From the sequence record OR844768: 46,941 nucleotides of DNA. The stretch is one strand, 5' to 3'. The notes under the pieces were generated by a model. That model was not told where the DNA came from and made no database searches. It saw nothing but the letters and a program-made list of their open reading frames with translations. Below are positions 30,510 through 33,179 of this stretch, piece by piece. A program made the translations under genes and the position numbers. Position 1 is the stretch's first letter. Each line of letters opens with the position of its first letter. Source of the stretch: Escherichia phage ECO111 5-P.

Positions 30510-30538
30510 GAAAAGCCCCGTGAAGGGGCTTTGGTTTA
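30510..30538. terminator. bidirectional terminator (aagccccg-tgaa-ggggcttt)
   Basis: Between convergent genes. Confidence 0.7.
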
Positions 30539-30799
30539 CAAAGAAAGTAGCGGCTTAGCGTAAAGCTTTACTCCTCCTCCCTGACCGATAATGATTACAT
30601 TCTCTGCACCTTCAATTAAAATTAAACCTTGCTTTGGTTTTTTGAATAAAGGTCTAATGTGAATGCCGGACTTGGTATGAAAAACAATACATGTTTCAAT
30701 AAACGTTATTGAACCTAATTTATAATTATCCCCTTTTGGGATTTGCTTTTCAATTGTATCCGGTACAGGAGTGTTCTTTCTGAATAATTCAATTTTCAT
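30536..30799 (-). CDS. hypothetical protein
   Basis: Track ORF, ATGA-coupled to DnaN-like gene. Confidence 0.4.
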   Translation of the reverse strand: MKIELFRKNTPVPDTIEKQIPKGDNYKLGSITFIETCIVFHTKSGIHIRPLFKKPKQGLILIEGAENVIIIGQGGGVKLYAKPLLSL

Positions 30800-31341
30800 T
30801 AATCAATCCTCCTCGGCATAACAACAATCTTCGCATTCTCGCCTGATGGCGCACTAAGACAGCAAACTGCGGCATCTGTGCTCCCATTCAGTTCAAATTT
30901 AACGCCACAGAATTTAGGATTAAACAGCTTAGCCGCTTTCTCAATATCAACCAGATAGCCAGCATTGAATCCGATGCAATCAGCAGCTTTCGTTTCCTTT
31001 GGTATCACGCGATCAATATCAGGGAATCGACCATCAATCTCTTCGCAGATGCCAGCACCAACCATCGCGCCAGCTTCATCATGATACGTTGCAATTTTCG
31101 ACTTAGTATCAATGATGGCGTACTCATAGCGTTTTGTTGGTGACTTGCCAATCTTGATAATCACATTTTCTGTCAGCTTATTATCATGGCTGCCACCAAT
31201 GAATGCGCGATGACCGTCAGTTGACGCAATGCGACCATCAGGCATGAAGCAGATTCCATTCAGGTAGTAGCGCACATCTTTGTGAGCCTGAAAGATTAAT
31301 GCTGACTCAAGTAATAGTTTGCTGATTTTTAGTTTCATCAC
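30799..31341 (-). CDS. DnaN (DNA polymerase III beta sliding clamp)-like protein, miniaturised (180 aa)
   Basis: Motifs in DnaN order: STDGHRAF (DnaN TDGHRLA), GRFPDIDRVIPK (DnaN GRFPDYRRVLPK), IGFNAGYLVD (DnaN IGFNVSYVLD), C-terminal IVVMPRRI (DnaN YVVMPMRL). Confidence 0.5.
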   Translation of the reverse strand: MMKLKISKLLLESALIFQAHKDVRYYLNGICFMPDGRIASTDGHRAFIGGSHDNKLTENVIIKIGKSPTKRYEYAIIDTKSKIATYHDEAGAMVGAGICEEIDGRFPDIDRVIPKETKAADCIGFNAGYLVDIEKAAKLFNPKFCGVKFELNGSTDAAVCCLSAPSGENAKIVVMPRRID

Positions 31342-31342
31342 T

Positions 31343-31510
31343 TCACCTTAATCATGTGTTGTTTTGCAACTTTCAGACATTCTTCAAAAATGCCACCCTT
31401 CCTTGCGCTCTGATTGCGCTTGTAATACTGAATCGCCGCATCAATTGCCATCTGGTCAATGTCAGGCAGCTTGGTACGAAGTTGTTTTTCGATGAATTGT
31501 TCAGCGTTCA
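31343..31510 (-). CDS. small hypothetical protein (about 55 aa)
   Basis: Minus-strand ATG about 31510; stop adjoins DnaN-like start; not in track. Confidence 0.3.
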
Positions 31511-31623
31511 TTTTGCGCCAATCCTAACGAGTAAGGAAGTAAAGGCGATGTCCTGGATGACCGTTATGATTAGCACCCAATTTTGAATTTCATAACCAAA
31601 CAACCCAATGCATATTGATGTAA

Positions 31624-32436
31624 TCATTTCATCTTCTCCAGAATTGCCATAACCTCGTGAATGTCAGCAACAGGAATCTGGATAAATTCCTCATCCTCAG
31701 CCACCACATGACCGGCAGGAAGAATTACGTGGTCGGCTGGCTTCAACAGCTCAATCAGGCGGTCTACTGGCTTAATCTTTTTCGACTTCAGCACTTTCGC
31801 TGTGACCTTATCCTTGCCTTGCGCCTTCGCTTCTTCTACTGCCTCGTCGATAACTTTAACCGCATCGTCGCCATGTTCGCGAGTTACCGCTACGGCATTT
31901 GCATAGCTGATTTGCCCCGCACTGATGCGTGCTTTCACTTCCGCCGGAACATCACCCAGTGACAGGTGCATTTGCACGTCAGATACTGAACGACCTACCT
32001 TCTTGGCGATTTCTTCATTCGTCCAGCCAAAGCCTTTCAGTCGCGTGTAAGCCTTTGCACGTTCAAACGGGTCAAGCTGTTTCCCCTGACTTGATGACAC
32101 CATGAAGGCGATTTTATCCGCCTCGTCGCCAGTGAAATCCTTACATTCAATGCGAACGATTGGTGCGCCACGTTCAATTGCACGCAGTGCGCCGAGATAG
32201 CGATGCTGACCATCAAGAATGCGGATTCCCTTCTCGTCAGGAATAACTGTTAATGCTGGCAGTGGCTGACCTGATTCCCAGCACTGCGCGAAATATTCCA
32301 CATGCTGCTCATCTGCTTCGCGGATGTTATATCCCGGCTCCAGATAGATTTGCTCCACTGGCACGAGATAGGTTTTGTTAACGGCAATGCCGTTGCGGGT
32401 TTCTTTGTCTGAATAGATTTTGCTGAGTGTTTTCAT
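31624..32436 (-). CDS. ParB-like nuclease-domain (ParB/Srx N-terminal domain) protein with HTH
   Basis: IRILDGQHRYLGA box and HTH-like GWTNEEIAKKVGRSVSDVQMHL. Confidence 0.65.
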   Translation of the reverse strand: MKTLSKIYSDKETRNGIAVNKTYLVPVEQIYLEPGYNIREADEQHVEYFAQCWESGQPLPALTVIPDEKGIRILDGQHRYLGALRAIERGAPIVRIECKDFTGDEADKIAFMVSSSQGKQLDPFERAKAYTRLKGFGWTNEEIAKKVGRSVSDVQMHLSLGDVPAEVKARISAGQISYANAVAVTREHGDDAVKVIDEAVEEAKAQGKDKVTAKVLKSKKIKPVDRLIELLKPADHVILPAGHVVAEDEEFIQIPVADIHEVMAILEKMK

Positions 32437-32439
32437 TGT

Positions 32440-33063
32440 TTATTCCTCATTACCAGAATTAGCAATATCGTAAAACTGACCGTATGTTATCTGCTTAAAG
32501 TTATCAGGTATCGTTACCTGTCCGTGACCTTCATCTTTTGTATTTGGCACTGCAAAAATCAGGCAATCATCCTTTTGCGGGTGTTTGCCGCCATAAGTGG
32601 ACAGCATTGCAAAACCAAATCCGCGACCAGATTGCTCACCAATGCCCGTACGCGCAATGCCATAATGGTTAACAATGTAGTCCTTCCATTCTGGCAATAA
32701 CTTTAATTTCTCGTTTGCCTCGCGCATTACTGCGTCCAGCTTTTTGTTGTATTCTCGCCCGTCCTTTGTGTTTCCTTTTCCGCGAGCCACAATTACACGC
32801 TGACCTTCCCAAAAGTCTTCGCGCTTTATTGTTACATGGCATGGAAATTCAAACTGCTTACTCCACACAAAGCTCTCAAGTAAGCCACCGCCGACCGCGC
32901 CCCAGCTACGTGTTGTAGTGAAAGCGATAGCGCCAACCTTTTTCATGGCATCGCCGAGAATTTCATTGCGGCGCTTTTGAATATCATCATATGCGTTAAT
33001 GACTTTCTTAACATTATCACCTTCAACCATGTAGTAATCATAATGTTTTGCGTTACTGCTCAT
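32440..33063 (-). CDS. hypothetical protein, first gene of ParB-like cassette
   Basis: ATG 33063 with RBS GAGGTGA. Confidence 0.45.
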   Translation of the reverse strand: MSSNAKHYDYYMVEGDNVKKVINAYDDIQKRRNEILGDAMKKVGAIAFTTTRSWGAVGGGLLESFVWSKQFEFPCHVTIKREDFWEGQRVIVARGKGNTKDGREYNKKLDAVMREANEKLKLLPEWKDYIVNHYGIARTGIGEQSGRGFGFAMLSTYGGKHPQKDDCLIFAVPNTKDEGHGQVTIPDNFKQITYGQFYDIANSGNEE

Positions 33064-33103
33064 TCCATCACCTCTAACGTTTATTGTTGTTTCTACGTCA
33101 CTA

Positions 33104-33132
33104 ACTATAAACACCTCATCAATCTACGTCAA
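33104..33132 (-). promoter_or_regulatory. minus-strand promoter TTGACG-N17-TATAGT
   Basis: Reverse complement of actataaacacctcatcaatctacgtcaa. Confidence 0.55.
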
Positions 33133-33179
33133 CAGGAATATGCTAAAATCATGCTAATCAAACAACAGGAGATTTAATC

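Follow-up and report, generated by a model that had tools for sequence, protein, structure and literature searches.

A shortened β-clamp homologue without ring-closing parts in a core-plus-cargo operon of Skatevirus-like phages

The genome record of Escherichia phage ECO111 5-P (OR844768; 46,941 nucleotides (nt), analyzed over its full length and called the window here) contains a minus-strand cassette of five genes set among its structural genes. One of them encodes a 180-amino-acid (aa) protein related to DnaN, the β clamp, which we call mini-DnaN, and another encodes a ParB-like protein. We find that mini-DnaN is domain II of DnaN fused to the C-terminal half of domain III. The cassette around it is a conserved accessory operon that consists of a promoter, a three-gene core and three exchangeable cargo slots. 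In the explanation that we favor, whose chances we put at about even, mini-DnaN is a ringless clamp-pocket module within this core-plus-cargo operon that would bind clamp-binding motifs off the ring and serve a phage that has no DNA polymerase.

Mini-DnaN: homology, missing ring parts and pocket

A phmmer search of the Protein Data Bank (PDB) matched mini-DnaN to the β proteins of E. cloacae and E. coli with E values of 1e-12 to 1e-11. The protein also matches the dnaN model TIGR00663 (E 1e-6; 27.8 bits, with a cut-off of 137.65), and Foldseek assigns the β-clamp fold with a probability of 1.00. An earlier reading of this DNA from its letters alone (the sequence-only reading) had called the protein DnaN-like, and these matches uphold that identity. 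The alignment to E. coli DnaN (MG1655) covers DnaN residues 136-282 and resumes in a second segment, where mini-DnaN 123-179 pairs with DnaN 317-366 and the end reads VVMPRRI in place of VVMPMRL. A profile of the family gives the same two segments. An AlphaFold2 (AF2) model built on a 136-sequence alignment reached a predicted local distance difference test score (pLDDT) of 97 and a predicted template modeling score (pTM) of 0.91. It contains two helices only, 8-17 and 127-140. The best Foldseek superpositions on E. coli β take in ~258 columns, with a query template modeling score (TMq) of up to 0.68, a span that the model would place in domain II and the C-terminal end, skipping the first half of domain III. 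In both sequence and fold, the parts of the β clamp (2POL/1MMI) to which mini-DnaN is homologous are thus domain II and the C-terminal portion of domain III.

Domain I and the first half of domain III are absent from mini-DnaN, and one of the two domain-II helices is deleted. The residues of the ring interface (I78/F106 and I272/L273/E298/E304) have been described, and those of pocket subsites I and II listed (PMC11139829). Because domain I and half of domain III are gone, the interface residues have no counterpart. Mini-DnaN is therefore not the three-domain protomer of a closed six-domain ring, and the two regions that meet in the head-to-tail dimer (I78 and F106 with I272 and L273) both fall in absent segments. 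Only 2 of the 6 channel helices of a β protomer are present, which amounts to two channel-type helices per 180 aa compared with 12 per β ring. Judged by its sequence, a protein of 180 rather than 366 aa with this makeup would be unable to form the canonical head-to-tail ring. The earlier description, a miniaturized clamp, is thus half right: mini-DnaN is a true β-clamp homologue, and the AF2 model of the protein alone has the clamp-type fold, but the model shows no ring parts, and domain I and the ring-closing interface are missing.

A ring might be closed in another way, for example by a tetramer with six domain equivalents, and mini-DnaN would then be a true clamp and a processivity factor. 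The protein is homologous to the clamp, and K135 and K138 on its second helix are conserved. Additionally, AF2 packs a glycine-serine (GS)-linked two-copy tandem confidently (paired 25-sequence alignment; pTM 0.79, domain pLDDT 82-93), which suggests a possible mini-DnaN homodimer. This tandem was judged from its scores, without coordinates or predicted aligned error (PAE), and is weak evidence either way. Two linked copies superpose on β no better than one (TMq 0.33, root-mean-square deviation about 21 Å), and the tandem is therefore not a clamp-like arc. Given the lost domain-II helix, the small number of channel-type helices, the absent canonical interface and a phage that encodes neither clamp loader nor DNA polymerase, we regard a true clamp as highly improbable.

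What the protein has kept is the pocket. An exhaustive search at E ≤ 1e-3 returned 1793 cluster representatives; among the 150 best matches, 131 have lengths of 165-215 aa. Many viral proteins of 180-250 aa in BFVD have the mini-DnaN fold (TMq 0.75-0.89) and are named at most 'DNA polymerase III beta subunit'. We analyzed conservation in an alignment of 136 diverse members with a mean column identity of 17%. The near-invariant positions, in E. coli numbering, are D150, R152, Y154, L155, G157, T172, G174, H175, P242, Y323, M362 and P363. Nine of these 12 most conserved positions are listed pocket residues (R152, L155, T172, G174, H175, P242, Y323, M362 and P363), a strong enrichment (hypergeometric p = 1e-8), and mean conservation is 0.77 at pocket positions compared with 0.37 elsewhere. 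On mini-DnaN itself, 17 of the 18 published pocket residues could be mapped, H175 and M362 corresponding to H44 and M175, and the pocket segments DVRYYLNG, TDGHR, GRFPD..RV.P, IGFN..Y and VVMP.R are retained. From these alignments, mini-DnaN appears to consist of the minimal clamp elements that build the pocket for clamp-binding motifs, with selection having acted on that pocket, and we infer that the pocket would bind such motifs.

Across many hosts, members of the family occur in siphoviruses, myoviruses and prophages. We considered repeated capture of host dnaN genes and rejected it, as the mini-DnaN proteins of Pseudomonas and Burkholderia phages match enterobacterial β best, which makes one old phage family more likely.

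In phrog_3007 and RefSeq, mini-DnaN goes under the label 'RusA-like Holliday junction resolvase', which has spread to RefSeq records such as NC_054647 gp73 and NC_054641 gp73. The protein matches neither the Pfam (PF05866) nor the NCBIfam model of RusA and its fold is that of the β clamp, so this label is best regarded as an annotation error. A genuine RusA-like gene does lie a few genes from mini-DnaN in two of the loci that we collected (L097 and L098).

An operon of constant core and exchangeable cargo

The five minus-strand open reading frames (ORFs) proposed for the cassette are all present and span 30536-33063 (Table 1). The p57 and mini-DnaN genes overlap by 4 nt and the mini-DnaN and p87 genes by 1 nt; the longest version of the 207-aa reading frame begins at GTG 33114. 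As had been noted, the cassette interrupts the structural genes, with the capsid gene on one side and head-tail genes on the other. Its base composition is not distinct from its surroundings. The sequence is not new, having been deposited and annotated in >180 phage genomes. At roughly 80-95% identity, 186 phage records contain a match to the cassette region, among them Salmonella phages Skate, KFS-SE2 and Akira, E. coli phages C1, swi2 and Bas79, Shigella phage Sf11 and Klebsiella/Salmonella phage IME207.

Table 1. Features of the cassette and of the rest of the window.
Feature	Position	Strand	Remarks
Direct repeat TTAGCAT-N4-TTAGCAT	33140-33157	-	just upstream of the cassette promoter; unique in the window
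Promoter TTGACG-N17-TATAGT	33132..33104	-	sigma-70-type; 10/12 consensus matches
9-mer TGACGTAGA, first copy	33123-33131	-	over the -35 element
9-mer TGACGTAGA, second copy	33092-33100	-	about +1
207-aa protein gene	33063..32440	-	slot 1; ATG start behind GAGGTGA Shine-Dalgarno sequence
ParB-like gene, 270 aa	32436..31624	-	core
Noncoding gap, 112 nt	31512..31623	-	slot 2, empty here; between ParB-like and p57 genes
p57 gene, 57 aa	31511..31338	-	core; phrog_4439, function not assigned
Mini-DnaN gene, 180 aa	31341..30799	-	core
p87 gene, 87 aa	30799..30536	-	slot 3
Terminator AAAGCCCC-GTGAA-GGGGCTTT	30512-30532	both	bidirectional, intrinsic; 8-bp stem, 5 GC pairs, T-runs on both strands
Capsid gene	28304-29374		flank of the cassette
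Head-tail genes	from 34001		flank of the cassette
Primase-helicase gene	6384-8717		Prim-Pol/PriCT/D5-type; the phage's own replication gene
SF2 helicase gene	1836-3704		the phage's own replication gene
DpdA2-like candidate (275 aa) and Vut_1/YhhQ-like neighbor gene	14807-16053	-	DpdA-like gene at 14807-15634
MarR-like protein gene	24767-25255		candidate repeat binder
Head-module gene, 496 aa	26344-27834	+	phrog_760; no assigned function
Head-module gene, ~284 aa	29650-30504	+	phrog_5335; between capsid gene and cassette terminator; no assigned function
GIY-YIG/T5orf172-type homing-endonuclease-like gene	41354-42229	-	opposite strand, between tape-measure and distal tail genes
HNH endonuclease gene	10714-11364	+	phrog_953; early region

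Relatives were collected as 80 loci fetched with the DnaN-like protein, about 50 of which are Skatevirus-like. In every Skatevirus-like locus that extends far enough (~50 loci), the gene order ParB-like, p57, mini-DnaN is constant. The p57 gene always lies directly upstream of mini-DnaN in these loci and is absent from Eta-like and other lineages. The cassette had been described as a single unit of five genes, a description that the relatives contradict, since only these three genes are constant.

The remaining positions are cargo slots. In slot 1, the 207-aa gene (phrog_2260, labeled 'EaC') occurs in about 10 of the roughly 50 related loci. Its product has no match in Pfam, NCBIfam, PADLOC or the PDB; we considered it as an Nmad5 protein and as the upstream partner of other ParB operons, and rejected both for want of similarity. 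Slot 2 holds a C5-cytosine methyltransferase gene (PF00145, 1.4e-21) or small ORFs in many relatives. The 87-aa gene in slot 3 was found in one other related locus only (L011); its product has a weak match to DUF7618, and searches of the PDB, Pfam, NCBIfam and PADLOC were otherwise uninformative. Salmonella virus KFS-SE2 has an extra 86-aa slot-1 gene by the promoter (gp78; positions 3095-3355 of locus L093) that is annotated 'anti-restriction protein', a label to which Pfam gives no support.

The sequence-only reading did not recognize this gene combination as a described system, and we likewise found no functional paper on it in the literature searched. There was also no study of short DnaN-like phage proteins in the searchable literature, which misses most subscription journals.

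The promoter and terminator that had been proposed for the cassette both hold up. In a promoter scan, the cassette promoter ties with one other site for the best score within 29.3-34.2 kb, and the number of sites in the scan, 5 compared with 7.3 expected, does not by itself exceed chance. What supports the promoter is its conservation: in 53 related loci, both hexamers and their spacing are identical upstream of the cassette and on the same strand, irrespective of the gene that leads it. The operon is probably read by host RNA polymerase from this promoter. At the other end, the hairpin with its T-runs is shared with a convergent plus-strand gene ending at 30504. Since the cassette is variable at its 3' end, exact copies of this terminator occur in 3 related loci only.

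Skatevirus-like loci share the pair of 9-mers at the cassette promoter. Written as TGAYGTAGA, this repeat has 12 exact copies in the genome, all of them in six strand-switch or promoter regions at 9.9, 16.1, 21.6, 24.0, 33.1 and 38.2 kb (positions 9944, 9961, 16083, 16100, 16179, 21578, 21607, 24016, 24041, 33092, 33123 and 38180). With one mismatch allowed, there are 16 copies compared with 7.1 ± 2.7 expected, and none of 100 shuffles reached 16. Several of the regions fit TTGACGTAGA-N8-TGATGTAGATTGA, which corresponds to a -35 element TTGACG, a 17-nt spacer and a -10 element TAGATT. TGAYGTAGA is probably a shared promoter/operator family, its putative operator function being deduced from these positions, and its presence at six promoter regions makes the cassette one of about six similarly controlled units. 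As a hypothesis, the repeat may be bound by the ParB/KorB-like protein or by a MarR-like protein encoded in the window. Two copies flank the ParB operon of Jilinvirus phages; the repeat is absent in Serratia phage Eta, in locus L059 and in Erwinia phage 59. The direct repeat just upstream of the cassette promoter resembles the KorB operator half-site TTTAGC, a likeness that may be due to chance.

Family neighborhoods and the ParB-like protein

In phages outside the Skatevirus-like group, mini-DnaN is found in several settings. In Serratia phage Eta it belongs to a replication module, in the order unknown gene, ParB-like, mini-DnaN and helicase, beside a primase gene. Replication of the lambda O/P type depends on the host holoenzyme, and in 24 lambdoid prophage-like loci mini-DnaN follows CI, Cro and CII and precedes O and DnaB-like genes, helicase and primase genes, or DnaC-like genes. 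Elsewhere it comes after RecT and YqaJ (L105), lies in the nin region (L097 and L098) or is the first gene of an early operon (L102). It is located between Dam and Dcm in Murrayvirus KMB41, before Dam and SSB in Vibrio phage PVP-XSN, and near a ParB N-terminal-domain gene and a phosphoadenosine phosphosulfate (PAPS) reductase gene in Pseudomonas phage Riah. On the opposite strand within head genes, mini-DnaN stands alone in Burkholderia phage Bcep43 and alone or behind an Nmad5 gene in Dhillonvirus. The shared theme is an early DNA-metabolism region devoted to replication, recombination or modification, with a ParB neighbor only in a minority. A neighborhood survey, as the sequence-only reading had advised, thus gives a divided answer: ParB and mini-DnaN adjoin in Skatevirus-like loci and in Eta, whereas most lineages lack ParB. 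The broad class that it named, a replication-accessory or anti-defense module, is still sensible.

Two of these settings contain further details. In Escherichia phage rolling, a Dhillonvirus, Nmad5 (PF18757, 6.6e-56) and mini-DnaN make up a two-gene opposite-strand cassette inside head genes (positions 2183-3519 of locus L089), an arrangement parallel to that of the present cassette. A point mutation in Nmad5 allows Dhillonviruses to escape Tmn immunity (PMC11846954). In Escherichia phage vB-Eco-KMB41 (positions 3318-3959 of locus L008), the Dam protein encoded directly upstream of mini-DnaN ends in ...YLTQAEMMFDGKSMI. Its QAEMMF fits the hexameric clamp-binding motif, and this Dam is a possible cognate ligand of mini-DnaN. 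No clamp-binding motif was found in the other neighboring methyltransferases examined.

The ParB-like protein consists of an N-terminal ParB/Srx domain, a ParB-type helix-turn-helix (HTH) and a C-terminal region, in agreement with the earlier description. It matches HTH_ParB (2.5e-11; 44 bits, with a cut-off of 22.6), Pfam KorB (7e-6; 26.3 bits, with a cut-off of 22.3), phrog_1033 (4.5e-91) and, under the cut-off, TIGR00180 (7e-10). T. thermophilus Spo0J (1vz0) aligns to residues 40-202 with an E value of 6.6e-13. With ParB/Spo0J/Noc and KorB it thus has in common a ParB/Srx domain followed by a ParB-type HTH. However, it differs from ParB/Spo0J in its motifs. Box II is DGQHR (in GQHRYLG), in which GQHR replaces GERR and the G and R are kept; homologues have DGHHR or DGHRR. 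Box III is degenerate, with SSSQG in place of ENLQR and the E and N lost. These two boxes make CTP hydrolysis appear doubtful. A recent survey holds that the nucleotide specificity of the ParB fold is not predictable from sequence (10.1101/2025.10.10.680097). Also unlike ParB/Spo0J, there is no ParA among the ORFs scanned, which were not all ORFs, and no recurrent 14-20-bp palindrome that could represent a parS family. Overall, the ParB-like protein is probably a DNA-bound platform or a KorB-like regulator and not a partition protein. As with KorB, it could act at several promoters, given the 9-mer at six promoter regions including its own, although the link between this repeat and the protein is hypothetical.

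The sequence-only reading had suggested a DNA-tracking machine; in such a model the ParB-like protein, as a nucleotide-gated DNA clamp, would work as one with a miniature ring-forming DnaN. Their genes adjoin in two contexts, the head region of Skatevirus-like phages and the replication module of Eta. Locus L059 has the ParB at 47% and the mini-DnaN at 66% identity, and the ParB N-terminal-domain gene of Riah lies four genes upstream of mini-DnaN. In Erwinia phage vB_EhrS_59 (positions 2501-3334 of locus L095), a ParB-like homologue with 44-46% identity lies between cII and an O-like replication initiator, the slot that mini-DnaN fills in the 24 other lambdoid loci. The pTM of the tandem model also speaks for such a machine. 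Nevertheless, mini-DnaN, with only two helices, has neither domain I nor the interface residues and is missing half of domain III, and the tandem does not superpose on a clamp arc. The degenerate box III and the failure to find a recurrent palindromic parS count against the ParB side. Furthermore, most mini-DnaN lineages have no ParB nearby, and the ParB-like clade, which tblastn located in 325 phage records, often occurs without an adjacent mini-DnaN. Because the family usually lies by replication, recombination or modification genes without ParB, a ParB-clamp machine draws little support, and we consider it very unlikely.

Other ParB-fold proteins offer a different comparison. The 5mYOX-associated ParB proteins (PMC13229309) and DpdB (PMC10164549) are similar to the ParB-like protein in having an orphan ParB fold and a box II of the DGQ(H/Q)R type, and the ParB-like operon carries a DNA methyltransferase in many relatives. 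However, the 5mYOX-associated proteins have no HTH, which is clear here, and there is no dioxygenase here. Unlike DpdB, the ParB-like protein does not co-occur with a DpdA-like gene across relatives.

The window does encode a candidate DpdA2-like DNA transglycosylase together with a Vut_1/YhhQ-like neighbor. The candidate matches phrog_887, 'queuine tRNA-ribosyltransferase' (6e-77), and is 40% identical to a protein of Salmonella phage 7-11. Sequence and profile searches of the PDB did not reach tRNA-guanine transglycosylase (TGT), and the identity is based on phrog_887, the phage 7-11 protein and annotations in other phages. The YhhQ-like gene belongs to the preQ0/preQ1 transporter family, and the two genes suggest that 7-deazaguanine may be present in the phage DNA. 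Among Skatevirus-like phages, the pair is found only in this phage and in Flyfo siphovirus Tbat1_6, which makes it sporadic cargo and not a partner of the ParB-like protein. We rejected the ParB-like protein as a DpdB analogue on this co-occurrence: only 2 Skatevirus-like phages have the DpdA-like gene, whereas all have ParB-like and mini-DnaN.

PCNA tethers DNMT1, and in an analogous way mini-DnaN, here perhaps also with the ParB-like protein, could help methyltransferases, Nmad5 or transglycosylases to act on newly replicated phage DNA. We judge this coupling to DNA modification to be unlikely. The neighbors of mini-DnaN are often modification genes, such as the C5-cytosine methyltransferase of slot 2, Dam and Dcm in Murrayvirus, Dam in the Vibrio phage, Nmad5 in Dhillonvirus (PMC11846954) and, in Riah, PAPS reductase with ParB. 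Phage ParB-like proteins activate T-dioxygenases (PMC13229309), and bacterial DpdA requires DpdB, a ParB-fold ATPase with DGQQR (PMC10164549) where box II here has DGQHR. The motif-like end of the KMB41 Dam and the DpdA2-like and YhhQ-like proteins of the window point the same way. However, the cassette in the window contains no modifying enzyme, and the DpdA-like gene is confined to this phage and one other Skatevirus-like phage. The other methyltransferases examined lack the motif, lambdoid loci put mini-DnaN by O/DnaB with no adjacent modifying gene, and methyltransferases are common in early regions anyway. In addition, without a ring, mini-DnaN would by itself be unable to tether anything to DNA.

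A proposed pocket module in a phage without a DNA polymerase

The window is a complete or near-complete genome of a small siphophage in the Skatevirus cluster. RefSeq classes the cassette-bearing relatives as Skatevirus or Akiravirus, and for this reason we rejected a Jersey-like (Guernseyvirinae) identity. Besides the primase-helicase and the SF2 helicase, the phage encodes an AAA_24 protein, a DUF669 protein and a Gp157-like protein. The ORFs of at least 396 aa are all accounted for (prim-pol/helicase, SF2 helicase, terminase, portal, tape measure, tail proteins and the phrog_760 head-region protein), and no DNA polymerase is among them. The phage encodes no clamp loader, and the ORFs scanned included neither an integrase nor a CI-type repressor. 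Lacking a DNA polymerase, the phage must use host Pol III; given this dependence, a protein acting on clamp-binding motifs would be a plausible aid to replication.

The pocket of the β clamp is a hub that coordinates polymerases, the clamp loader, Hda and mismatch repair, and it is an antibiotic target. Mini-DnaN would offer a free, off-ring copy of this cleft. Such a cleft could bind the QL[SD]LF-type clamp-binding motifs of host replisome and repair proteins, for which Pol III α, ε and δ, Hda, Pol II/IV/V and MutS/L are candidates. It would either recruit these targets to phage DNA or keep them away from it, and in both cases may serve the replication of a phage that has a primase-helicase and no DNA polymerase. 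Its targets, its action as an adaptor or a decoy and a possible partnership with the ParB-like protein are conjectures on our part.

Other phages make use of the same interface of pocket and motif, in the gp45-dependent late transcription of T4 and in the binding of β by the Mu C protein (PMC12867686). In contrast to mini-DnaN, which is encoded by phages that have neither clamp loader nor polymerase, these systems contribute either a protein with the motif or an entire clamp and work through the ring. A pocket without a ring would be the reverse arrangement. A broader version of our explanation takes mini-DnaN as one of a large class of phage ringless clamp-pocket decoys or adaptors that hijack or neutralize motif-bearing proteins (polymerases, the clamp-loader δ subunit, Hda, MutS/L and clamp-targeting toxins) and that, in Skatevirus-like phages, are wired to a KorB-like ParB in control of a six-promoter regulon. 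We hold this version, targets included, only tentatively, at somewhat less than an even chance.

Several points weigh against a ringless pocket module. Simple sequestration of Pol III would bring no benefit to a phage dependent on the host enzyme. In ordinary clamps, too, conservation is highest at the pocket residues, and the signal seen here could in part reflect an inherited constraint of the fold. A regular-expression scan of the phage proteome found no terminal clamp-binding motif; its only matches were QMHLSL at residues 155-160 of the ParB-like protein and QMKLL in a head-tail protein. We rejected QMHLSL as a clamp-binding motif, for it lies inside an HTH helix and its Q is not conserved in homologues. 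The pTM of the tandem model leaves room for an oligomer with some DNA-binding geometry. The family contexts are heterogeneous, and some members are solitary genes on the opposite strand inside head genes. Finally, motif binding by mini-DnaN is proposed from sequence, and its partners are candidates.

Clamp-targeting toxins such as SocB exist, and a free pocket could serve as an anti-defense or counter-toxin decoy, either by soaking up effectors, from the host or from rival elements, that attack or sense the β clamp or by blocking an immunity pathway. The operon is a hotspot for cargo of a counter-defense type, such as the methyltransferase and the gene annotated 'anti-restriction'. In unrelated phages, mini-DnaN is often placed like a moron, within structural genes but on the strand opposite to them, and its Dhillonvirus neighbor Nmad5 is the Tmn escape locus (PMC11846954). 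We nevertheless think a dedicated decoy of this kind quite unlikely. PADLOC returned no match, and the replication-gene neighbors in many lineages fit a replication role better. Moreover, the BASEL study, which assigns Bas77-81 (46-48-kb genomes) to Skatevirus, reports marked sensitivity of Skatevirus phages to restriction-modification systems and to Old (PMC11990801).

These findings correct two propagated annotations of the family, 'RusA-like resolvase' and 'DNA polymerase III beta subunit'. They also tell the constant operon core apart from the exchangeable cargo slots, a distinction that guides the choice of genes to delete. If mini-DnaN is a ringless clamp-pocket module, nature would have provided a minimal pocket domain that could be of use in structural studies and inhibitor screening. 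The broader version of our explanation would amount to a principle of host takeover so far undescribed. The question bears on how polymerase-less phages capture Pol III, and mini-DnaN may be a new viral way to redirect the host replisome.

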